Notes: generated from the sequence alone by a model not told the origin. A stretch of 64,000 nucleotides of DNA from Mycobacteriales bacterium (GCA_035995165.1 DASYKU010000066.1:1575-65574), one strand, 5' to 3'. Positions 51,145 through 64,000 are shown, counted from the first letter of the stretch. Program-made: numbers and translations.

Positions 51145-51901
51145 TCGCCCGACCCCGCCGGTGCTGGTGGCCGGCCATGTCGCCCATCGGTACGGGCGGC
51201 GGCGGGCGGGGCTGGTCGACGCCGACTTCGCACTGCGCGGACCGGTCGTCGGCGTGCTCGGCCCGGCCGGGGCGGGCAAGTCGACGCTGCTGTCGCTGCT
51301 CACCGCGGCCCGGCCGCCGACCGGCGGGACGCTGTCGGTCTGCGGGCTGGACCCGTCCGACCCGGTCCAGCGCCGCATCCTGCGCAACCGCATCGGCGTG
51401 GTCCCGCAGGCGCTGTCGGCGTTCCCCCGGCACACGGTCGGCCAGTTCCTGACGTACGTCGGCTGGCTGCGCGGGATCTCGGCGGCCGCGCTGCCGGCCG
51501 CGATCGAGGACTGCCTGTTCGCCACCGACCTCACCGAGCTCCGTGACCGGCCGGTGCGCACGCTCGGCACCGGCACCCGGCAGCGCACGCTGCTGGCCCA
51601 GGCGTTGATCAACCGGCCCGCGCTGCTGGTGCTGGACTCGCCGACGGTGGCGCTGGACCCGGACCAGCGGGCCCAGTTCCTGGCCCGGCTGACCGCGCTG
51701 CGCGGCCGGTGCGCGGTGGTGCTGGCGACCCCGCTGGTGGAGAACGTGGCCGCGGTCTGCGACGAGGTCGTCGTGCTGGCCGCGGGCCGGACCGTGTTCA
51801 GCGGCCGGACCGGCGAGCTGGCCGGCGGCGAGGTCACCCCGGCCACCGTCGCCGCGGGCTACGTCCGAGTGCTCGAGGAGGCCCGCACGGCCCGTCGGTG
51901 A
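51134..51901 (+). CDS. ABC transporter ATP-binding protein with degenerate catalytic motifs
   Basis: Walker A GPAGAGKST and the Q-loop VPQ are intact. The signature reads LGTGTRQR (not LSGGQ), Walker B reads LLVLDSP (Ser in place of the catalytic Glu), and the H-loop position reads LATP (no His). Confidence 0.75.
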   Translation: MPADRPTPPVLVAGHVAHRYGRRRAGLVDADFALRGPVVGVLGPAGAGKSTLLSLLTAARPPTGGTLSVCGLDPSDPVQRRILRNRIGVVPQALSAFPRHTVGQFLTYVGWLRGISAAALPAAIEDCLFATDLTELRDRPVRTLGTGTRQRTLLAQALINRPALLVLDSPTVALDPDQRAQFLARLTALRGRCAVVLATPLVENVAAVCDEVVVLAAGRTVFSGRTGELAGGEVTPATVAAGYVRVLEEARTARR

Positions 51902-51927
51902 CACCGCGTACGGCGTACGATAGCGGG

Positions 51928-52353
51928 GTGACGAAGCCCCAGATTCCCGCTCCCGCCGTGGAGAAGACCGACGAGGAGTGGCGCGCCGAGCTGTCCCCGG
52001 CGGCGTACGAGGTGCTGCGCAAGGCCGGCACCGAGCGCCCGTGGACCGGCGAGTACATCGAGAACCACCGCACCGGCGTCTACCGCTGCCGCGCCTGCGG
52101 CACCGAGCTGTTCCGGTCCGACACCAAGTTCGACTCGCACTGCGGCTGGCCGAGCTTCTGGTCCCCGCTGGCCGGCGACAAGGTCATCCTGCGCGAGGAT
52201 CGCGACCTGGGCATGGCCCGGGTCGAGGTGCTCTGCTCGAACTGCCACTCCCACCTCGGCCACGTCTTCTCCGGCGAGGGGTACGGCACGCCGACCGACG
52301 ACCGCTACTGCATCAACTCGATCTCGCTGACTTTCGAGGACGAGCCCGCGTAG
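51928..52353 (+). CDS. msrB: Peptide-methionine (R)-S-oxide reductase
   Basis: GTG 51928. Two CxxC pairs (YRCRACGTELF and LCSNCHSHLGHVF), GWPSF, and the catalytic RYCINS. Confidence 0.93.
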   Translation: MTKPQIPAPAVEKTDEEWRAELSPAAYEVLRKAGTERPWTGEYIENHRTGVYRCRACGTELFRSDTKFDSHCGWPSFWSPLAGDKVILREDRDLGMARVEVLCSNCHSHLGHVFSGEGYGTPTDDRYCINSISLTFEDEPA

Positions 52354-52356
52354 CGC

Positions 52357-53535
52357 TCACTTCGCCAGCGTGGAGCCGCTGATCGCCGGCGGCTTCGCGC
52401 CGAGGAAGAACCACCCCGGCAGCCCCGCGGTCTCGAAGCCCGCGCTCGGGTTGCCGGTCATCGTCGAGCCCTGCACGGTCGCGGTGCCGGTCCGGTCGTT
52501 GCTGACGAAGAACACCGCTCCGCCACCCTCGGCGGCCGAGTTGCCGGTGATCCGCACCCCCGACAGGCGCAGCGTGAACGTGTTGCCGTCGAGGTAGATC
52601 GCGCCTCCGCTGCCGCCGCCCGGCGTACCGGAGCGGGCCGGGTTCGCGCCGCTGCCGATGGCGCGGTTGCCGGACATCACCGTGTTCGTGATGTCCCAGG
52701 ACACCCCGATGCTGGAGATCGCGCCGCCGTTGGAGCAGACGCCGCCGGAGAAGCTGCTGCCCGAGATCCGGACCGGCAGGCCCTGGGACTGGCTGAGCAC
52801 CCGCAGCGCGGCGCCGCCCAGGTCCGGGCCGGAGGAGTCGCAGCGGTTGCCGGTGAAGGTCGAGTCCACCACCGCGAACCGGCCGCCGCGGACGAAGATC
52901 GCGCCGCCCCCGCCGCCCTCGGTCATGTCCCCGGCGGAGTTGCCGCCGGCGAAGCCGAGCCGCTGCACGGTCAGCTGCGGGCTGTCCTGGTCCTGGCAGT
53001 GCGAGGTCGTGTAGCCCTGCTGGGCGTCGCAGGTGTTCTGGTAGAGGATCCGGCGCTGCCCGCCGCCGGAGAGCGTGACCTTGCCGCCGCCGTCGAGGAC
53101 CAGCTTCGGGTGCGCGTTGACGACCTTGGCCGTCCGGGTCAGCGTGATCGTCACCGGCGCCGGGCCGCAGTCGAACGTGACCACGCCGCCGGCGGCGACC
53201 GCGGCGACCACGGCCGCGGACGTGCAGCCGGCGGCGGTGCCGGTGCCGATCACCCGGTCCGGGTGCGAGGTGTCGACCAGCGCGCCGCCGCCGGGGGCGG
53301 CCGGACCGGCCGGCGCCTGGGTCCTCGGCGTCGGCTTCGGGGTGGGCCTGGGCGTCTTCTTCGCCGCGACGACCTTGCCGGCCGAGGGCAGCGGCGGGGC
53401 CGGGCGGGCGGTGTGCGCGGGCGTCGTCACCGCCGGGGCGACCGGGGCCGCCTCGAGCACCGGCCGGGCCGGCGACCCGCAGGCCGCGAGCGACGCCGTA
53501 CCGAGCAGGACGAGACAAGCCCACCGCAACCGCAC
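52357..53535 (-). CDS. Lipoprotein with right-handed beta-helix (pectate-lyase-fold-like) repeats
   Basis: Lipobox LAACGS and a Pro/Thr/Lys-rich linker. Repeated G-rich turns follow (GGGGGAIFVRGG, SNGGAISS, GGSGGAIYLDGN, AEGGGAVFF), as in polymorphic beta-helix proteins. Confidence 0.65.
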   Translation of the reverse strand: MRLRWACLVLLGTASLAACGSPARPVLEAAPVAPAVTTPAHTARPAPPLPSAGKVVAAKKTPRPTPKPTPRTQAPAGPAAPGGGALVDTSHPDRVIGTGTAAGCTSAAVVAAVAAGGVVTFDCGPAPVTITLTRTAKVVNAHPKLVLDGGGKVTLSGGGQRRILYQNTCDAQQGYTTSHCQDQDSPQLTVQRLGFAGGNSAGDMTEGGGGGAIFVRGGRFAVVDSTFTGNRCDSSGPDLGGAALRVLSQSQGLPVRISGSSFSGGVCSNGGAISSIGVSWDITNTVMSGNRAIGSGANPARSGTPGGGSGGAIYLDGNTFTLRLSGVRITGNSAAEGGGAVFFVSNDRTGTATVQGSTMTGNPSAGFETAGLPGWFFLGAKPPAISGSTLAK

Positions 53536-53876: not shown

Positions 53877-54572
53877 CTACGGCAGCGTGGCGACCAGGTC
53901 GGCGACCGAGCGCTTCCGGCCGGTGTAGAAGGGGATCTCCTCCCGGACGTGCCGGCGGGTCACCGAGCTGCGCAGGTGCCGCATCAGGTCGACGATCCGG
54001 TGCAGCTCGTCCGCCTCGAACGCGAGGATCCACTCGTAGTCGCCGAGCGCGAACGAGGCGACCGTGTTGGCCCGCACGTCCGGGTAGTCGCGGGCCAGCT
54101 TGCCGTGCTCGGCCAGCATCGCCCGCCGCTCCTCGTCCGGCAGCAGATACCACTCGTACGACCGGACGAAGGGGTAGACGCAGACGTAGTCGCGGGCCTG
54201 CTCGTCGGCCAGGAACGCCGGGACGTGGCTCTTGTTGAACTCGGCCGGCCGGTGCAGGGCCAGCTGGGACCACATCGGGGTGAGCGCCCGGCCGAACGCG
54301 GTCCGCCGGAACCGCCCGTACGCCTCCTGCAGGTCGTCGGCGGACGCCGCGTGCCACCAGATCAGCACATCGGCGTCGGCCCGCAGCGCGGACACGTCGT
54401 ACGTGCCCCGGATGACGATGTCCTTGCTGGCCAGCTGCTCGAACAGCTCCTCGGCCTCGGTCGCGGCCGCGACCCGGTCGGCCGGCATCGGGGCGGTCGC
54501 CCGGAACACCGACCAGCCCGTGTACCGGATCACCGCGTTGAGCTCACGCGCCTTCTTCCCATCCACTGCCAC
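53877..54572 (-). CDS. chdC: Coproheme decarboxylase / hydrogen peroxide-dependent heme synthase (chlorite dismutase family)
   Basis: 231 aa. [10 protein letters not shown]..., [16 protein letters not shown] and MLAEHG are typical of actinobacterial HemQ/ChdC. Confidence 0.9.
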
Positions 54573-56073: not shown

Positions 56074-57021
56074 GTGAACGTACGGGCGAGGGGGCTGGGC
56101 GCGGCAGCGGTGACGCTCGCACTGGCCGGCGCGCTGGCCGGATGCAGCTCGGGCAGCAACGACTCCGGCAGCGACACGGGCAGCGCGGCGAGCAACACGA
56201 TCGGCGAGCAGGCCGTGGGCGCGCCCGGGTCGGCGGTCCCGGCCGCCGGGTCCCAGGCGGCGGACTCCGCCACCGCGACGGGCGGGAAGGCGGCCGCGCC
56301 GGGCGACACCAGCGCGATCCGGATCGAACCGGCGCTGATCCGGACGGCCGACCTCACGGTCGTGGTCGACGACGTACCCGGCCGGGCCGGCGCGGCCGAG
56401 TCCGCGGCCCGGGCCGCCGGCGGCGTGGTGGCCGGGGACGACCGGTCCGGCTCCGGCTCCGGTGCGCACGCCAAGCTGGTGCTCAAGGTCCCGCCGGGCC
56501 GGCTGGACGCGCTGCTGGACCAGCTCGGGAAGCTCGGCACCGAGCAGTCCCGGACCAGCAGCAGCCAGGACGTCACCGAGGACGTGGCCGACATCGGCTC
56601 CCGGGTGGCGACCATGCAGGCCTCCATCGCCCGGATCCGGGCCATCCTGTCCCGGGCCGACAAGATCGGCGACGTGGTCGCGGTCGAGGGCGAGCTGTCC
56701 ACCCGCACCACCGAGCTGGAGTCGCTGCAGGCCCGGCAGCGGGCGCTGGCCGGCCAGGTCAGCTACGCGACGATCACGCTGGACCTGCGGGCCCACGGCG
56801 CCGCGGCGGCCCCGGCACCGGTGGACCGCAGCGGCTTCGCCGGCGGCCTGCAGGACGGCTGGCACGCGTTCACCGCGACCGTGGGCTGGCTGGCGATGGT
56901 GCTCGGCGCGCTGCTGCCGTTCCTGATCGTCGGCATCCCGCTCGCGCTGGCCGCACGCTGGGCGGTCCGCCGCCGGACGGCTACCCCGGCAGCGAGTGGA
57001 CCAGTTCCACAGTCCGAGTGA
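56074..57021 (+). CDS. DUF4349 domain lipoprotein
   Basis: GTG 56074 after GAGGAGG. Lipobox LAGCSSGS, a coiled-coil region ([26 protein letters not shown]) and a C-terminal TM anchor. Confidence 0.72.
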
Positions 57022-58033
57022 GCACGGCCGGGTCGGTGTCCGGCAGGACGCCGTGGCCGAGGTTGAACACGTGGCCGGGGGCCGCCCGGCCTTCGGCCAC
57101 GACCCGGCGCACCTCGGCCTCGACCACCGGCCAGTCGGCCAGCAGCAGGGCCGGGTCGAGGTTGCCCTGCACGGCCCGGTCCGGCCCGACCCGGCGGGTG
57201 GCCTCGTCCAGCGGCACCCGCCAGTCGACGCCGACCACGCTCGCGCCGGCCTCCCCCAGCAGCCCGAGCAGCTCCCCCGTCCCGACGCCGAAGTGCACCA
57301 GCGGGAGGTCGAGGTCGGACAGCGCGGCGAACACCGCGGCGCTGTGCGGCTGCACGAAGCGGACGTAGTCGGCGGCCGACAGCGCGCCGGCCCAGGAGTC
57401 GAACAGCTGCAGCGCGGACGCGCCCGCCTCCGCCTGCACCCGCAGGAACGTCGCCGCGATCGTGGCCAGCCGGCCCAGCAGCGCCGACCAGAGCTCGGGC
57501 GCACCGTGCATGAACGCCTTCGTCCTGGCCTGGTCGCGCGACGGGCCGCCCTCGACCAGGTAGCTGGCCAGCGTGAACGGGGCCCCGGCGAAGCCGATCA
57601 GCGGGGTGCCGGCCAGCTCCCGGACCAGCATCCCGACCGCCTCGCCGACGTACGGGACCTGGCCCGGGTCCAGCGCCGGGAAGGCCTCGACCGCGACCGC
57701 GTCCCGGATCGGCGCCGCGACCACCGGGCCGACCCCGGGCACGATGTCCAGGTCCACCCCGGCCGCCCGCAGCGGCACCATGATGTCGGAGAACAGGATC
57801 GCCGCGTCCACCCCGTGCCGGCGGACCGGCTGCAGGGTGATCTCGGTGATGAGGTCCGGTCGGGTGCAGGCCTCGAGCATGCCGACGCCGGCCCGCAGCG
57901 CCCGGTACTCCGGCAGCGACCGGCCGGCCTGGCGCATGAACCACACCGGGGTCCGCTCCACCGGCTCCCGGCGCATCGCCCGGACCAGCAGGGACTCGGT
58001 CCGTACGGCCGGTGTCGCGCTCATCGCCGCCAT
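56981..58033 (-). CDS. hemE: Uroporphyrinogen decarboxylase
   Basis: [27 protein letters not shown] and the rest of the URO-D pattern. The start is ATG 58033 or 58024. Confidence 0.93.
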
Positions 58034-58229
58034 CCTGCCACTCTGTCCGTGGTTCGCTCCCGGCGCTCCCCGGCCGTCCGCTCGCGGGGACGTACCGGGA
58101 CGGACCGGGCGGCGTAAGGGTTGCCGCCGCGACACGCCGGGTGTCCTCCCGCGTCGCCGGCGCCCCGCGTGTCACCGTCGCCCTACGGACGCGACAAGCA
58201 CCTTCCCCCAACCGTGCCGAGGAGGTCCG

Positions 58230-58444: not shown

Positions 58445-59038
58445 ATGTCAGCCACGGTGCCTGAACGCGACATGCCCCGGCCGCGGGGCCGCTCGCTCGC
58501 GCCCGCCGAGTTCGCCGCGGCGGTGCGCAGCCTGGGCCTGGCCCGGGTCCGGTCCGAGGTCCGGGTCGAGGAGGTCCGGCCGCCGCAGAAGCTGGCCCCG
58601 TGGACGCACGCGGTGGCGCTGACGCTGCTGATCGCCGACGAGGAGGTCGCCACCGGCCGCCTCGTCCTGCTGCACGACCCGGCCGGCTACGAGGCCTGGG
58701 AAGGCACCCTGCGCCTGGTCGGGTACGCCTCGGCCGAGCTGGACGCGGAGATGGCCGGCGACCCGCTGCTGCCCGAGGTCGGCTGGAGCTGGCTGCTGGA
58801 CGCGCTGGAGACCGCCGGGGCCGGGTTCCGCGCCGCCGGTGGCACCGTCACCCAGACCTCCTCCACCCGCTTCGGCGACCTGGCCGGACCGCGCCGCACC
58901 TCCGACCTGGAGCTGCGGGCGTCCTGGACGCCGGTCGGGCAGGACGTCTCGGCGCACCTGCGCGCGTTCGCGGAGCTGCTCTGCACGGCGGCGGGGCTGC
59001 CGCCGGCCGGGGTCACCGCCCTGCCGAACCGGGGCTGA
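58445..59038 (+). CDS. DUF3000 domain protein
   Basis: ATG 58445. EVRPPQKLAPWTHAVAL...GRLVLLHDPAGYEAWEGTLRLVGY... matches the family usually found next to hemE and rnd in actinobacteria. Confidence 0.75.
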   Translation: MSATVPERDMPRPRGRSLAPAEFAAAVRSLGLARVRSEVRVEEVRPPQKLAPWTHAVALTLLIADEEVATGRLVLLHDPAGYEAWEGTLRLVGYASAELDAEMAGDPLLPEVGWSWLLDALETAGAGFRAAGGTVTQTSSTRFGDLAGPRRTSDLELRASWTPVGQDVSAHLRAFAELLCTAAGLPPAGVTALPNRG

Positions 59039-59044
59039 GCCCGC

Positions 59045-60151
59045 TCAGACCCGCAGCGGGCTGCCCGGGACGCTGCTGGACCCACTGCCGGAGCCGAGCA
59101 CCAGTCCCGCCCGCGGCGCCATCGGCAGCCGCAGCGTCAGCTCCGTACCCTCGCCGGGGGCGGTCACGACGTCGAGCGAGCCGCCGGCCAGCCGGGCCCG
59201 CTCCCGCAGCAGCCCGAGGCCGACGTGCCGGCCCCCGCCGGACTGCACCTGGCTCGGCACGAACCCCGGCCCGGCGTCGCGGACCTTGGCCACCAGATGG
59301 TCCCGTTCCACCGCCAGCGAGGCGTCGGCCTCGTCCACGTCGGCGTGCTTGACGACGTTGAGCAGGGCCTCCTGGAAGAACCGGTAGACCGTCACCGCGG
59401 ACACCAGCGGCAGCGGGTACGCCTGCTCCGGCCAGCTCAGCCGGACGGTCACCAGGTAGCGGGTGGCGAACTCGCGCCGCAGGGCGCCCACGGCCGAGGC
59501 CAGGTCACCGTCGTTCAGCGCCGCCGGCCGGGCCCGGGCCATCACCGCGCGGACCTGCTCCTCGGCGTCCTCGACCAGGTCCCGGACCTTCTCCATCCGC
59601 TCCGGGTCGGGGTCGATCCGCTCGGCCAGCAGCGACCGGGCCACCGCGAGCGACTGGGCGACCGTGTCGTGCAGCTCCGCGGACAGCTGGCCCCGGGTGG
59701 CCTCCTCGGCCGCGACCAGGCCGGACAGCAGCTCGAAGACGCCCGCGCTGGTCTGCTCGGCGGTCCGCCGGGCCTGCTCGGCGACCTCGTCCGCGACCCG
59801 GGCCCGCAGGTGCAGCGCGTCCAGCACCCGGGCCAGCTCGGCGAACTCGGTCGCCGCGCCGACCAGCTGCGGTGCGGTCGTCGACACCCGCAGCGAGGGG
59901 TCCCGCAGCCGCCGGACCGCGTCCGCGTGCAGCTCCCGGAGCCCGGCGGTGACCCGCCGGGACCAGAACACGCCCCCGGCGACCAGCGCCAGGCCGACCA
60001 GCAGCCCGATGAGGAGGGCCAGCACTTCCAGCCGGTCGAGGCCGCCGCGCGCGAGAACGGCGCCGACCAGCAAGATCATCGTGACGACGATCGCGGCACC
60101 GCCGATGGCCGCCCATGCCGCGAGCGGCAGGTTCCGACCGCGTCGGATCAC
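59045..60151 (-). CDS. Sensor histidine kinase (HisKA_3, NarL-partner type)
   Basis: GTG 60151 overlaps the upstream TGA (GTGA). Two TM helices, an H-box LSAELHDTVAQSLAVA, and an HATPase region NVVKHAD...VRDAGPGF...GLGLLRERA. Confidence 0.88.
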   Translation of the reverse strand: MIRRGRNLPLAAWAAIGGAAIVVTMILLVGAVLARGGLDRLEVLALLIGLLVGLALVAGGVFWSRRVTAGLRELHADAVRRLRDPSLRVSTTAPQLVGAATEFAELARVLDALHLRARVADEVAEQARRTAEQTSAGVFELLSGLVAAEEATRGQLSAELHDTVAQSLAVARSLLAERIDPDPERMEKVRDLVEDAEEQVRAVMARARPAALNDGDLASAVGALRREFATRYLVTVRLSWPEQAYPLPLVSAVTVYRFFQEALLNVVKHADVDEADASLAVERDHLVAKVRDAGPGFVPSQVQSGGGRHVGLGLLRERARLAGGSLDVVTAPGEGTELTLRLPMAPRAGLVLGSGSGSSSVPGSPLRV

Positions 60152-61581
60152 GGACCGACGGCGTCCTCGAGCCGACCGGTGGTGGTCCACTCGGCGTCCC
60201 GGGTCGGGGCCGCGGGTCCCGCGGTGAGCTCCAGCTGTTCGACCTCGGCGTCACTGGCCAGCGCGATCGCGCCGAGCAGCGAGGCGACCGCACGCTCGAC
60301 CGAGTAGAGCTCGGCGACGATCTCGTCGACCGCCTCCGGCCCGTCGAAGCGGGTGGCCAGCCGGGACAGCCGGTGCGCCGACTCGCGCAGCACGGCCAGC
60401 GCCGGGACGGTCTCCTGGGAGATGTCGCCCAGCACCCGGTTGGCGGCGCCGTACGCCTCGGCGCGCCCGACGGCCTCGTCCCGCCGGGCCGACAGCTCGG
60501 CGACCGACAACCAGGACTCGGCCTGTCCGACGAGCACACCGGCCAGCTGGGCGTCCGCGCGGCCGAAGGTGGCCGACAGCGGCGGACGGTGGGCGATGAG
60601 CACGGCCAGCGGACGCTCGGGATCGCCGAGCACGGCCGAGCAGTACGGCTGGTCGCCGTCCTCGCCGATCAGCACGCCGCGAGCGGCGAGCGCGCGCAGG
60701 GCCCACGGGCCGTCCAGCGCGTCGGAGTCGACCCGGGTCCGGGCGGCGACACCGCTGTCGTCCCCGACGTAGCGGAGGAGGCCATCGGGGTGCCGCAGCA
60801 GCATCTCCACCCGCGCGGCGCCGAACAGGCGGGCCGCGGCGATGGTGATGACCTGGGCGGACGCGTCGACGGAGCCGCCGAGCCGCTGCTGGCCCTGGGC
60901 CAGCTCGGCGAACAGCTGCGCTTCCGACGCACGCCGGGACTGCTGCTGGTAGCTCCACCAGAGCAGGCCGATCGGCACCAGCAGGCCGAGCAACCCGATG
61001 GGCTGCTCCTTCCACAGCCAGCCGGCCAGCACGCCGACCGACAGGTTGCCGACCGTGTTCATGATCGCCATCGGGCCCATCCGGGTCAGCACCCGGAAGT
61101 ACGGCACGCCGGACGTCACCGAGATCGGGACGGCGACCAGGGAGTGGTTGAACAACGCGTACGTACCGAGGCCGATGCAGGCGGCGAACACGCCTCCGCC
61201 GAGCAGGTTCGCCACCAGGGCGCCGGCCGCGGCGGCGCAGAACATCTGCGCCATGTTGAACGCGAGCTTGAGGGGCGACCGGTTCCGGATCCCGCCCCGG
61301 GCGAGCGCGAAGCCGAGCGCCATGCCGACCGCGGCCCACGCACCCGGCGAGACCAGGACGAAGGCGACCGCCAGCACGAGGTCGTTCAGGGCGAAGGTGA
61401 CGCCCTGTTTACCGACGACGATGCGGACCCGGACGGCGACCCATTCGGTGATGGCCACCGCGGCCACGAACACGCCGAGGGTCAGCCAGGACGGCAGGCC
61501 CCACCCGGCGAGCACGGACAGCGTCGTACCCACTACCGCCAGCATGGCGATGATGAGCTGAACTGCCCGGTCAGGCTTCAT
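60148..61581 (-). CDS. Multi-TM membrane protein with a cytoplasmic GAF-like domain, no output domain
   Basis: ATG 61581. About 7 hydrophobic helices are followed by a region of roughly 230 aa (...VITIAAARLFGAARVEMLLRHPDG...LIGEDGDQPYCSAVLGDPERPLAVLIAHR...) that resembles a GAF fold. The family call is tentative. Confidence 0.6.
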   Translation of the reverse strand: MKPDRAVQLIIAMLAVVGTTLSVLAGWGLPSWLTLGVFVAAVAITEWVAVRVRIVVGKQGVTFALNDLVLAVAFVLVSPGAWAAVGMALGFALARGGIRNRSPLKLAFNMAQMFCAAAAGALVANLLGGGVFAACIGLGTYALFNHSLVAVPISVTSGVPYFRVLTRMGPMAIMNTVGNLSVGVLAGWLWKEQPIGLLGLLVPIGLLWWSYQQQSRRASEAQLFAELAQGQQRLGGSVDASAQVITIAAARLFGAARVEMLLRHPDGLLRYVGDDSGVAARTRVDSDALDGPWALRALAARGVLIGEDGDQPYCSAVLGDPERPLAVLIAHRPPLSATFGRADAQLAGVLVGQAESWLSVAELSARRDEAVGRAEAYGAANRVLGDISQETVPALAVLRESAHRLSRLATRFDGPEAVDEIVAELYSVERAVASLLGAIALASDAEVEQLELTAGPAAPTRDAEWTTTGRLEDAVGP

Positions 61582-61595
61582 ACCGAGGAAAGCCC

Positions 61596-61730
61596 TCAGT
61601 CCCAAGCCGAACCGTTGAGCGACACCGAGTGCGGGCTGAAAGTGACCGCGCCGGCCGCGTCCGCTGCTCCCACCGCGATGCCGAGCGCTATGGCCACGAA
61701 CACCACCGCGCGAACGAGTCGTCTGCGCAT
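61596..61730 (-). CDS. 44-aa small secreted peptide candidate
   Basis: MRRRLVRAVVFVAIALGIAVGAADAAGAVTFSPHSVSLNGSAWD. It has a classic n/h/c signal peptide with an ADA-A site, GGGAGAG upstream, and a stop 14 nt before the next gene's ATG. It is the internal start of track ORF 61596..61787. Confidence 0.45.
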   Translation of the reverse strand: MRRRLVRAVVFVAIALGIAVGAADAAGAVTFSPHSVSLNGSAWD

Positions 61731-62041
61731 CGTTCCACTCTCCCATTCCCGGGCCACCCCCCGCGATCCAGGTGGATCAGGCCGCACACACTATCGGGTG
61801 TTGCCAAATCCCGAGGCATCAACACCTGATGTTGTCACCTTCCCCCGAGAATACCCCGAAGGGAGTAGCGTCGGCCCCGCCGTGCACGGCAGGCTGTCGC
61901 CCGGAGATGCTGGCCATCCCGCGTGGAGCTGCCGGCCCGCGGACCACCGCGCTCCACTAGCGGGCCACGGGAGGGCACGGCGTGACCACAGAGGGTACGA
62001 GAGGGGCGGACGTGACCGCACTGCAGGCCACGGCGGGGTCG

Positions 62042-62701
62042 ATGGAGGGTGTCGGACCCGCGACAGCGCAGCGCTTCACCGCGCTGGTGGTGGACGACCA
62101 TCCACTGCTGCGTGAATCGATCGTCACCAAGCTGCGCTCGATGGGCGCCGCCGAGGTGTACGAGGCCGCCAGCGTGGCCGAGGCCCGCGCCCGCGCGCAC
62201 GCCTCCGGCCCCTGTGACCTGTGCATTCTCGACCTGGGACTGCCCGACGGCAACGGTCTGGACCTGCTCGGCGAGCTGCGCAGCTCGGGCTGGCCGCGGC
62301 TCGTCGTGCTCTCCGCCGCCGACGACCCCTACTCGGTGCGAGCCGCGTTCGTGGCCGGCGCCCAGGGCTATCTGCTCAAGTCCGCCTCCCCCTCGGTGGT
62401 CTCCGACGGCGTCCGCCGGGTCCTCGACGGCGGGGTCTACGCGGACCCCTCGGTCGCCTCGCTGCTGGCCGCCGGCCTGCGCGGTGGCCCGAGCGAGAGC
62501 GGCGTCGCCGACCTGTCCGCCCGCGAGATCGAGGTGCTCCGCCTGGTCGCGGACGGCAAGTCCAACAAGCAGATAGGTGAGACGCTGAGCCTCTCGGCGC
62601 TCACCGTGAAGAGCCACCTGGCCCGCATCGCCCGCAAGCTCGGCACCGGGGACCGGGCCGAGATGGTCGCGCTGGTCATGCGCGCAGGCATCATCCGCTG
62701 A
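62042..62701 (+). CDS. NarL/LuxR-family response regulator
   Basis: Receiver domain (ALVVDDHPLLRES...ILDLGLPDGNG) and LuxR HTH (LSAREIEVLRLVADGKSNKQIGETLSLSALTVKSHL). The start is ATG 62042 or GTG 61982. Confidence 0.9.
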   Translation: MEGVGPATAQRFTALVVDDHPLLRESIVTKLRSMGAAEVYEAASVAEARARAHASGPCDLCILDLGLPDGNGLDLLGELRSSGWPRLVVLSAADDPYSVRAAFVAGAQGYLLKSASPSVVSDGVRRVLDGGVYADPSVASLLAAGLRGGPSESGVADLSAREIEVLRLVADGKSNKQIGETLSLSALTVKSHLARIARKLGTGDRAEMVALVMRAGIIR

Positions 62702-62727: not shown

Positions 62728-64000
62728 GTGACCGAGTCGACGGCTCCCGGGGGCGAGTCAGCCACGGACCTGGACGGCTCCCGCGTCGCCGCCAACGGCG
62801 CCGCGCCGGTCGCCCCACCGGCCGAGCCCGAGGTGGATCCCGAGGTCGTCGCCGAAGCCCGGGTGGCGGTGCCGCTGGTCGAGCCGCGCGAGGGCGTACC
62901 GGAGCCGATCACGACCGAGGCCGACCTGGCCGCGGCGATCGCCCGGCTGGCCGCCGGCATCGGACCGGTCGCGGTGGACGCCGAGCGCGCGTCCGGCTAC
63001 CGGTACGGGCAGCGGGCCTACCTGGTCCAGCTCCGCCGCAAGAACTCCGGGACCGTGCTGATCGACCCCGTCCCGCTGGCCGACCTGTCCGCGCTCGGCG
63101 CCGCGATCGCGGACGCCGAGTGGGTTCTGCACGCGGCCAGCCAGGACCTGCCCTGCCTGTCCGAGCTCGGCATGCACCCGCGGACGCTGTTCGACACGGA
63201 GCTGGCCGGCCGCCTGCTCGGGTACGAGAAGGTCGGCCTCGGCGCGATGGTGGACAGCCAGCTCGGGCTGGCCCTGGAGAAGGGCCACTCGGCCGCCGAC
63301 TGGTCGACCCGGCCGCTGCCCCGCTCCTGGCTGGCGTACGCGGCGCTGGACGTCGAGGTGCTGGTCGAGCTGCGCGACCTGCTCGAGGTGCAGCTGGCCG
63401 ACGCCGGCAAGCTGGACTGGGCCACGGAGGAGTTCGCCGCGGTCGCGGCCGCCCCGCCGCCGCCCCCGCGGGCCGAGCCCTGGCGCCGGACCTCGGGCAT
63501 CCACCGGGTCCGCGGCCGCCGCGCGCTGGCCACCGTCCGGGCCCTCTGGGAGGCGCGGGACGGGCTGGCCCGGCAGCGCGACATCGCCCCGGGCCGGGTG
63601 CTGCCGGACAGCGCGATCGTCGCCGCCGCGACCGCGAACCCGGCCACCGCCGAGGAGCTGGCCGCGCTGCCGGTGTTCTCCGGCCGGCAGCAGCTGCGTC
63701 AGCTGCGCCGCTGGTTCGGCGCGGTCGAGGCCGCCCGGGCGCTGCCGGAGATCGACCTGCCGCTGTCGGCGGTGCCGAGCGACGCGCCGCCGCCGCCGAA
63801 CCGCTGGGCCGACCGGGACCCGGACGCGGCCGCCCGGCTGGCCGCGGCCCGGGCCGCGCTGGCCGCGCTGTCCAAGCAGCACGCGATCCCGGTCGAGAAC
63901 CTCCTCTCCCCTGACCTGGTCCGCCGGCTGGCCTGGTCGCCCCCGGCCGACATGTCGGTCGACGGGGTGACGGCCGTGCTGGCCGCGGGCGGCGCCCGGC
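62728..64000 (+). CDS. rnd: Ribonuclease D (DEDDy 3'-5' exonuclease plus HRDC); 3' end runs off the window
   Basis: Not in the ORF track (no stop in the window). My translation gives ...PVAVDAERASGYRYGQRAYLVQLRR...WVLHAASQDLPCL...HSAADWSTRPLP...YAALDVEVL, followed by an HRDC-like region. GTG 62728 is the first in-frame start; 62833 and 62863 are alternatives. Confidence 0.85.
   Translation, partial: MTESTAPGGESATDLDGSRVAANGAAPVAPPAEPEVDPEVVAEARVAVPLVEPREGVPEPITTEADLAAAIARLAAGIGPVAVDAERASGYRYGQRAYLVQLRRKNSGTVLIDPVPLADLSALGAAIADAEWVLHAASQDLPCLSELGMHPRTLFDTELAGRLLGYEKVGLGAMVDSQLGLALEKGHSAADWSTRPLPRSWLAYAALDVEVLVELRDLLEVQLADAGKLDWATEEFAAVAAAPPPPPRAEPWRRTSGIHRVRGRRALATVRALWEARDGLARQRDIAPGRVLPDSAIVAAATANPATAEELAALPVFSGRQQLRQLRRWFGAVEAARALPEIDLPLSAVPSDAPPPPNRWADRDPDAAARLAAARAALAALSKQHAIPVENLLSPDLVRRLAWSPPADMSVDGVTAVLAAGGAR

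Follow-up and report, generated by a model that had tools for sequence, protein, structure and literature searches.

We describe here a signalling module in a 64,000-nucleotide stretch of DNA from a Mycobacteriales bacterium (GCA_035995165.1 DASYKU010000066.1:1575-65574), referred to below as the window, which belongs to an uncultured soil metagenome-assembled genome (MAG) of 5.37 Mb. Between a gene for a DUF3000 protein and rnd lies an operon for a predicted secreted peptide, a membrane sensor and a histidine kinase and, divergent to this operon, the gene for a response regulator. Judged by synteny, reciprocal best hits and a phylogenetic tree, the regulator is an orthologue of WhiI, which controls sporulation in Streptomyces, and we are confident, short of certainty, that this orthology holds and that sensor, kinase and regulator form a three-component relay. 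That the whole works as a peptide-cued three-component phosphorelay with autoregulation, with a WhiI orthologue as its regulator, is a reading that we favour with distinctly less assurance. The features of the locus are as follows, with positions counted from the first letter of the window.

58445..59038, + strand: DUF3000 gene, the left flank (Pfam PF11452, E 9e-71)
59045..60190, − strand: HisKA_3 kinase (Pfam HisKA_3 and HATPase_c; third-position GC content, GC3)
60148..61581, − strand: 477-residue membrane protein with no output domain (GC3; AlphaFold2 model)
61596..61730, − strand: predicted precursor of a secreted peptide, 44 residues (conserved orthologous open reading frames)
61764..61777, strand not applicable: palindrome GATCCA-GG-TGGATC (alignment)
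61852..61867, strand not applicable: candidate operator, a 7-2-7 inverted repeat (conservation and position)
61982..62701, + strand: NarL/FixJ-type response regulator (Pfam Response_reg 3e-19, GerE 1e-18)
62728..64000, + strand: rnd (RNase D), the right flank (Pfam DNA_pol_A_exo1, HRDC, DNA_pol_A_exoN)

The G+C content of the window is about 76%, and the true reading frames are singled out by GC3. A preliminary description, made from the sequence alone, had placed four genes between the flanks. GC3 supports the kinase, the membrane protein and the regulator, and Pfam domains identify the kinase and the regulator; the 14 nucleotides that it gave between the peptide stop and the ATG of the membrane protein, and the GTGA stop/start overlap into the kinase (60148-60151), are likewise found in the sequence.

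First of all, the regulator has the NarL/FixJ architecture, with a receiver domain and a GerE helix-turn-helix, and may alternatively start at the ATG at 62042. In Streptomyces, the same slot between the DUF3000 gene and rnd holds a regulator of 219-220 residues, whose 90%-identity cluster comprises 961 sequences, the named members checked all being Streptomyces. This protein reads VVVADP, with Ala (A26-D27) in place of the first paired Asp, and GYVVTGT, with Thr in place of the conserved Lys. According to the published account, WhiI is an orphan in which the otherwise universal Lys and one of the two paired Asp residues are missing, and its streptomycete versions share at least 93% identity (PMC4125116); SCO6029 is WhiI (PMC9739842). 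By these matching properties, the Streptomyces junction regulator is WhiI. The best match of the window regulator in three of three Streptomyces genomes is the junction gene (E about 1e-48, the next paralogue reaching 6e-31), and the reverse search with the Streptomyces gene returned the window regulator as its sole hit. We further built a maximum-likelihood tree of 42 regulators, including 16 paralogues from both genomes, BldM among them, which was identified as a 203-residue regulator with D54 that is 100% identical in three Streptomyces genomes. In this tree, the module-linked regulators and the orphans, that is, the lone regulators found at this junction elsewhere in the class, form one clade (100/100) versus the 16 paralogues; the eight orphans, three of them from Streptomyces loci by cluster look-up, form one clade (99/98) nested within the module-linked regulators, beside Acidothermaceae sequences, and their branches are several times longer than the module-linked ones. 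The module-linked regulators are 98% identical within the genus and 76-93% between families, with the sensor at 48-66% over the same span. Between the window regulator and WhiI, identity is 76% in the DNA-binding domain, where an unbroken stretch of 22 residues across the recognition helix is the same in both proteins, versus 45% in the receiver domain.

The window regulator is thus like WhiI (SCO6029) in its slot, in its reciprocal best hits and in its clade, and further in two respects taken up below: a candidate operator of 7-2-7 layout with one half like the published WhiI half-site, and a BldM orthologue in the same genome. Three traits of WhiI, on the other hand, are not found in it. Its phosphorylation pocket is complete rather than degenerate, since D38, D39, D84, S111 and K133 are all intact, whereas WhiI lacks the Lys and one Asp. 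It is no orphan, as genes for a HisKA_3 kinase and a sensor lie divergent to it and are kept in more than 80 loci, and the peptide gene adjoins it too. Finally, whiI depends on WhiG, whereas the window regulator has no WhiG-type promoter motif and its genome no WhiG sigma factor over the cut-off. Because these three traits fail, we regard the regulator as the canonical, kinase-linked representative of the WhiI lineage and not as "a WhiI". The D27/D69 numbering of WhiI and the location of SCO6029 likewise agree with the Streptomyces junction regulator.

Second, the kinase has two transmembrane (TM) helices, at about residues 22-47 and 55-77, which are joined by an 8-residue loop and followed by a linker, HisKA_3 and HATPase_c, with the H-box histidine H174 in ELHDTVAQ; it starts at the GTG at 60190 or at the GTG within the GTGA overlap (60151). 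Because the two helices flank a loop of only 8 residues, the kinase has no sensing domain of its own, and it gives partial matches, all far under the cut-offs, to the NCBIfam models for UhpB, NarQ, LiaS and MacS. Together with the regulator it has the marks of a classical HisKA_3/NarL pair (an H-box and ATPase domain, a complete acid pocket and adjacent genes), and together with the membrane protein those of a LiaFSR-like system, namely, a two-TM kinase with a loop of less than about 25 residues and an accessory membrane-protein gene coupled to it through GTGA. Intramembrane-sensing kinases commonly depend on such accessory membrane proteins, as in LiaFSR and BceS. The three-component arrangement put forward in the preliminary description is thus supported, because a sensor module that lacks an output is translationally coupled to a kinase that lacks a sensor; the block of peptide gene, sensor, kinase and divergent regulator is kept in more than 80 loci.

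Third, the 477-residue membrane protein would be the sensor. It has no hits in Pfam or NCBIfam and no significant match in a profile search against PDB sequences, where Ninjurin (E 3.7) was discarded as a chance match, and it therefore stands outside the well-known accessory families, a match to one of which had been named as what would speak against the preliminary reading. An AlphaFold2 model built on 62 orthologues, with a predicted local distance difference test score (pLDDT) of 81, has about eight TM segments (residues 1-215) with outer loops of 2-6 residues, the topology being as read from the model. It includes a short intramembrane helical hairpin (66-96, with helices 66-76 and 81-96), an alpha/beta domain with a GAF fold (238-331) and a long helical hairpin (341-444), followed by a low-confidence tail, and the orthologue alignment shows an invariant EWTTTGR motif in this C-terminal tail. 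The earlier label "GAF-like" holds by fold, as GAF domains are the top Foldseek matches of the alpha/beta domain (E about 2e-4, target TM-score at most 0.65), but is weak by sequence, as Pfam GAF is detected, weakly, in 20 of the 62 orthologues and not in the window protein itself. An exosortase- or sortase-like role for the eight-TM protein was ruled out, since the invariant TM columns include no Cys or His.

An exhaustive profile search with this protein gave 949 representatives at E ≤1e-3 and 89 at E ≤1e-30. In distant homologues, this TM domain is fused either to PAS-HisKA-HATPase or to GAF-GGDEF(-EAL). Two of these homologues exceed the MASE9 (PF20972) cut-off of 24.3 bits, P0273 with 26.6 and P0288 with 25.0. 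Galperin and Chou describe MASE9 as a promiscuous membrane sensor that has a hairpin within the membrane and probably binds its ligands there too (10.1101/2021.11.05.467447). The model of the window protein has the two short TM segments arranged as an intramembrane hairpin and the minimal loops that mark this domain, and its TM domain may be said to resemble MASE9, a polytopic domain likewise found with varied outputs (kinase, GGDEF/EAL). The window protein differs from MASE9 proteins, however, in giving no hit to the model (two of the 62 orthologues match weakly, E 0.015) and in lacking an output, so that it would presumably act through the separate kinase; its association with a gene for a Trp-containing peptide has no prior description in the literature searched.

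Finally, this peptide gene heads the operon. It encodes a 44-residue precursor with a predicted Sec-type signal peptide, MRRRLVRAVVFVAIALGIAVGAADA, in which an AxA signal-peptidase site follows the hydrophobic stretch, and a 19-residue mature part, AGAVTFSPHSVSLNGSAWD, which ends S-A-W-D. A GGGAGAG Shine-Dalgarno sequence precedes the open reading frame (ORF), whose GC3 is moderate (0.78) and whose start, frame and stop are kept across at least four families. Over its first 28 codons, 10 orthologues show 457 synonymous versus 332 non-synonymous codon differences, and their alignment contains indels whose lengths appear to be divisible by three. Every relative in the window clade has a small ORF at the same place, with a strongly conserved N-terminus that resembles a signal peptide (MRKRLVRALIFIAVAxGVAVGxASAAGA), then 12-25 variable residues and then a C-terminus of the form ..(D)G-x-S/I-W-D/E/G. 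At loci further removed from the window, the regulator and sensor genes lie 1.5-2.1 kb apart, and the space between them holds a gene whose stop usually overlaps the sensor start and whose product ends in tandem Trp pentapeptides, such as (SSWSA)n, (NSWSA)n, (ATWSA)n, (KSWSA)n, (RNWTA)n, (RMWDA)n and others; as many as 17 W-x4-W steps occur among the last 90 residues, and the final copy typically reads ..GWGD.. In nearly all loci, then, an ORF with a Trp motif lies directly upstream of the sensor gene.

In a census of the upstream gene at 60 loci (L065-L124), 41 were scored as a subtilase with repeats, and 5 showed repeats at loci cut by a contig end. A short or other product with repeats was found at 7, two of these being of about 530 residues and probably subtilases that escape the triad pattern. 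A Trp motif without a five-residue tandem was present at 3, two of them being small ORFs that encode a signal peptide and a single Trp motif close to the C-terminus, the third having ANSWS units spaced nine residues apart. The remaining 4 were scored as lacking the motif, yet L080 among them retains SWSAGSWS. The module subtilases match Pfam Peptidase_S8 with invariant Asp, His, Asn and Ser, and a structural model shows a propeptide, a confident catalytic core and a repeat tail without secondary structure (pLDDT about 27). A pentapeptide-repeat beta-helix was ruled out for the Trp tail, which has no Pfam match and is unstructured in the AlphaFold2 model. The type of repeat unit tracks phylogeny closely. 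In one genome (G038), we also observed two additional cassettes that are paralogous to this one and that each begin with a subtilase bearing its own Trp unit. In the first (L126, G038:C49:92000-106000), a subtilase with (ATSWS)n is followed by a sensor-like gene and a kinase, and the divergent regulator shares 51% identity with that of the window; the second (L125, G038:C1:90000-104000) has a subtilase with (GSSWY)n and then the same TM-GAF module fused to PAS, a PP2C phosphatase and a HATPase domain. In the window genome itself, seven AEWSV/AEWSA units at C8:36263-36740 (− strand) were set aside as a 15-bp DNA tandem repeat in a frame of high GC3 that is probably unrelated; this stretch has no signal peptide and no sensor gene nearby.

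As far as gene order and motif conservation tell, the secreted Trp motif is the constant partner of this sensor subfamily whatever its output, with the window clade having the minimal version. We read the peptide as the cue because of this constant company, and we lean towards that reading by a small amount. Neither the link between the sensor family and Trp-repeat proteins nor the repeats themselves were found described in the literature searched.

The control region between the divergent genes offers a candidate for the target of the regulator. Midway between them, with 115 nt to the start of the regulator and 122 nt to the ATG of the peptide gene, lies the inverted repeat TACCCCG-AA-GGGAGTA (+ strand; TACTCCC-TT-CGGGGTA on the − strand). 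It is invariant in 20 of 20 small-peptide loci from at least four families, at a constant 103-142 nt from the estimated regulator start, and at protease-type loci it is recognisable as CTACTCCGAAyGGGsGA. Binding sites of the NarL family have a 7-2-7 layout. The repeat shares that layout with the BldM site TCACcCgnncGgGTGA, and one of its halves, TACCCCG, is similar to TGnnCCG, which is the WhiI half of the BldM-WhiI site TGnnCCGnnCGGGTGA, both of these being published sites of 16 bp. We infer that the repeat at 61852-61867 is a candidate autoregulatory operator, and its near-palindromic form suggests that a homodimer would bind it. A search of the control region against Rfam gave no match.

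Two further kinds of palindrome were seen. Just upstream of the ribosome-binding site of the peptide gene lies GATCCA-GG-TGGATC (61764-61777), which is genus-wide (with GATCCGCCTGGATCC in some genomes) and not found in other families; a second operator and a hairpin in the 5′ untranslated region are both possibilities. Elsewhere in the window genome, perfect or near-perfect palindromes of the form TAC.CC-N4-GG.GTA (TACACCTCACGGTGTA, TACACCTTCAGGTGTA and TACGCCGGACGGCGTA) occur at C96:132185, C133:3122 and C59:58619, that on C133 being about 0.8 kb upstream of a gene for a group-3 sigma factor (C133:3937-4584). These may be sites for related NarL-type regulators.

Taken together, the following mechanism can be proposed. 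The 44-residue precursor would be exported by Sec and cut after ADA, as its signal-peptide anatomy implies, to release a 19-residue peptide ending S-A-W-D; elsewhere, the conserved Trp motif takes the form of a tandem array on a short secreted protein or, mostly, on the predicted-disordered tail of a subtilase. The Trp peptide, free or tethered, would be sensed by the MASE9-like TM domain of the 477-residue protein, and the GAF domain and helical hairpin would relay its state to the partner kinase. The kinase would then autophosphorylate at H174 and pass the phosphate to D84 of the regulator, as the intact motifs suggest. A dimer of the regulator would bind the 7-2-7 repeat and autoregulate the cassette, with more targets likely. 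In Streptomyces and several other lineages, the genes for peptide, sensor and kinase would have been lost, and the phosphorylation pocket afterwards. In Streptomyces, WhiI is known from the literature to be transcribed in dependence on sigma-WhiG and to act through heterodimerisation with BldM. A bolder proposal, which we offer as doubtful, is that Frankiales/Acidothermaceae-type actinobacteria possess an unrecognised peptide-pheromone system. The subtilase with its own Trp array would there be a self-processing poly-pheromone precursor, reduced to a single-copy 19-mer in the window clade and read by the MASE9-like receptor and its partner kinase, and this would have been the ancestral input of WhiI, which lost its dependence on a kinase in Streptomyces.

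Several points weigh against the peptide-cued relay or parts of it. A strict match to the operator occurs only once in the 5.37-Mb window genome, so that a regulon cannot be predicted from it. The identification of the Streptomyces protein as WhiI is a match of properties, not an alignment to a named record, and the long branches of the orphans mean that their placement inside the module clade could reflect long-branch effects. No homologue of the module-type subtilase was found in the window genome, so that processing steps other than cleavage by signal peptidase would have no explanation there. Five loci with more distant MASE9-like paralogues lack a Trp-repeat neighbour, which limits the association to the closer sensor subfamily. 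All members of the cassette are known through their genes, and a ligand role for the Trp peptide is argued from position, conservation and analogy. Moreover, the signal-peptide part of the small ORF is better conserved than the mature part, and its product could be an uncleaved single-pass membrane micro-protein that serves as a subunit of the sensor.

This last point belongs to an alternative that we consider unlikely but deserving of weight, in which neither the small ORF product nor the Trp tails are diffusible signals; both would stay in the membrane or at the surface as lasting subunits of the sensor complex, docked on the MASE9-like domain so as to tune or gate it. The stimulus would then be of another kind, for instance the state of the envelope, a lipid intermediate or a subtilase substrate. 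MgrB and SafA on PhoQ and LiaF on LiaS would be models for it, accessory membrane proteins being in common use by intramembrane-sensing kinases; the best-conserved section of the small ORF is indeed hydrophobic, its translational coupling with the sensor suggests stoichiometric partners, and MASE9 has been proposed to bind its ligands within the membrane. However, the AxA after the hydrophobic stretch is a textbook signal-peptidase site, all three architectures share an extracytoplasmic C-terminal Trp motif without a membrane anchor, and most lineages bear this motif on a secreted protease with its own propeptide. More improbable still, in our judgement, is that the upstream gene encodes a co-regulated exoprotein or peptide, an output rather than an input, with the Trp repeats as an anchor to the cell wall or membrane interface. 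Many two-component operons do contain target genes, Trp-rich segments partition to membrane interfaces, and the subtilase looks catalytically competent, yet the link between Trp-motif gene and sensor recurs in paralogous cassettes whose outputs differ (a kinase versus a PP2C/HATPase fusion), it persists in the window clade, where the protease domain has been lost altogether, and overlap of its stop with the sensor start is the rule.

The module is widely conserved at this junction. The membrane protein is present in 12 of 12 genomes of the genus and in 14 of 15 of the family, the exception being a 78%-complete genome, and also in several further families of the order; the order DUF3000 - kinase - sensor - regulator - rnd is unchanged in 12 of 12 fetched relatives. 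A scan of 185,579 species genomes gave 142 relatives, and among the best 80 of these 142, which were inspected, the arrangement is identical at every locus with flanks present. All 80 come from MAGs, whose labels are Mycobacteriales, Frankiales, Frankiaceae, Acidothermaceae or Pseudonocardiales. The full protease-type cassette is present in a named isolate, Acidothermaceae bacterium B102, whose genome is complete. Across the class, DUF3000 was found in 151 of 151 sampled genomes, and at the 20 of these loci whose junction content was inspected, 10 junctions are empty, 2, from other orders, hold the full module, and 8 hold a lone NarL-type regulator in the same orientation as in the window. One locus from another order (L041, G143:C2:2324000-2343000) looks eroded, with a sensor match limited to residues 129-471 at 36% identity, a kinase match from residue 115 on, no Trp-motif ORF detected upstream and rnd broken into three frames, and the module may be in the course of being lost there.

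The preliminary description had regarded the unit as inserted between the DUF3000 gene and rnd, and had named its presence at this position throughout the family as what would speak against that view. Comparison of synteny at the junction shows exactly such a family-wide presence. The "inserted" framing fails because the module occupies the same position throughout the genus, the family and beyond, and on this comparative evidence the module is an old, widely conserved signalling cassette and not a recent insertion. That it arrived as a recent lineage-specific insertion, its likeness to WhiI being ordinary NarL-family paralogy, is scarcely credible: about half of the sampled class genomes do have an empty junction, but identical synteny at more than 80 loci in several families, the reciprocal best hits with the Streptomyces gene, the 100/100 clade apart from 16 paralogues and a base composition with no atypical signal and no hint of foreign origin all stand against it. 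Because the orphan copies branch from within the kinase-linked regulators, the simplest reading is instead that the kinase-linked state is ancestral, and that the kinase operon was lost first and the receiver domain decayed later. If so, the evolutionary direction is the reverse of that implied by the word "inserted". A 2013 survey of 100 actinobacterial genomes treats WhiI as kinase-less and absent from Frankia-type organisms, and we found no description of a kinase-linked WhiI orthologue in the literature searched.

The promoters bear on the history of the connection to WhiG. Streptomyces whiI and several orphan copies are preceded by TAAAG-N16-GCCGA(A/T), a motif of the WhiG/sigma-28 type, which reads CTAAAG-N16-GCCGAAGA upstream of Streptomyces whiI (L025-L027) and is not present in full in every orphan. 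At protease-type loci (L068-L118), the closely similar [T/G]AAAG-N15/16-GCCGA(A/C/G) precedes the subtilase-sensor-kinase operon on the sensor strand, 200-330 nt from the regulator start. The motif TAAA-N16-GCCGA was not found upstream of the window regulator, and no FliA/WhiG sigma factor scores over the cut-off in the window genome (best 123.5 bits versus 189.6). A WhiG-class sigma factor is over the cut-off in four of four protease-type genomes tested; among five other genomes of the small-peptide clade, three are without one, one has it and one is borderline. These observations suggest a link between WhiG and WhiI that may be older than Streptomyces and that may at first have acted via the kinase operon. 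The window genome also encodes a BldM orthologue (C104:19920-20513), which is 50% identical to the invariant Streptomyces BldM and its sister in the tree (100/100), so that the partner regulator of WhiI exists in the window organism although WhiG does not.

Comparison with known systems helps to place the cassette. LiaFSR and VraTSR of Firmicutes likewise combine a two-TM HisKA_3 kinase with a minimal loop, a NarL regulator and a gene for an accessory membrane protein immediately upstream of the kinase, within one operon. The accessory protein of the window, however, is unrelated to LiaF (it has no Pfam hit) and combines eight MASE9-like TM segments with a GAF fold and a coiled coil; moreover, the window operon is led by a secreted-peptide gene, and the regulator is divergent rather than downstream. 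In ComQXPA and Agr of Firmicutes, too, a precursor peptide gene lies directly upstream of a polytopic membrane receptor and a kinase. ComP and ComA likewise belong to the HisKA_3 kinases and the NarL regulators, respectively, and the ComX pheromone requires a Trp residue. As in those systems, the peptide of the window cassette varies between lineages while the machinery is conserved, and an autoregulatory operator is likely. On the other hand, there is no modifying or processing gene of the ComQ or AgrB type between DUF3000 and rnd, the window precursor has a Sec signal peptide, receptor and kinase are separate, the receptor TM domain is MASE9-like, and the window system is known at the level of its genes only. 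By way of analogy, Phr peptides of Bacillus, with their subtilisin-type processing, and yeast alpha-factor with Kex2 likewise carry a short C-terminal active unit in a secreted precursor, with tandem near-identical short units in relatives and a subtilase involved. Here, by contrast, subtilase and repeat array are mostly one polypeptide, and the signal would be sensed outside by the kinase complex rather than imported.

The upstream neighbourhood of msrB, chdC, hemY and hemE given in the preliminary description is present in the window, as follows.

51709-52353, + strand: msrB, upstream neighbour
52360-53535, − strand: ORF of 392 residues between msrB and chdC (GC3 0.98; no Pfam match)
53880-54572, − strand: chdC, upstream neighbour
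between chdC and hemE: protoporphyrinogen-oxidase-like gene (hemY), upstream neighbour
56984-58135, − strand: hemE, upstream neighbour

The longest ORF of the DUF3000 gene opens at 58121, the ATG at 58445 being the likelier start, and rnd, which extends beyond the end of the window, matches TIGR01388 in part (150.6 bits; cut-off 298.95).

WhiI is a textbook orphan and atypical response regulator, whose ancestry and former signal are not addressed in the literature searched. In the same slot here, a canonical regulator is accompanied by its cognate kinase, by a co-sensor with MASE9-like and GAF parts and by a secreted peptide with a Trp motif, which offers a concrete and testable answer; the locus probably shows what WhiI was once wired to. 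To our knowledge, peptide signalling systems are scarcely known in actinobacteria. If the proposal is true, it would add peptide signalling in these organisms, would provide the first candidate ligand class for a MASE9-like membrane sensor domain, and would serve as a case study of a two-component pathway that was taken apart until a transcription factor independent of phosphorylation was left.

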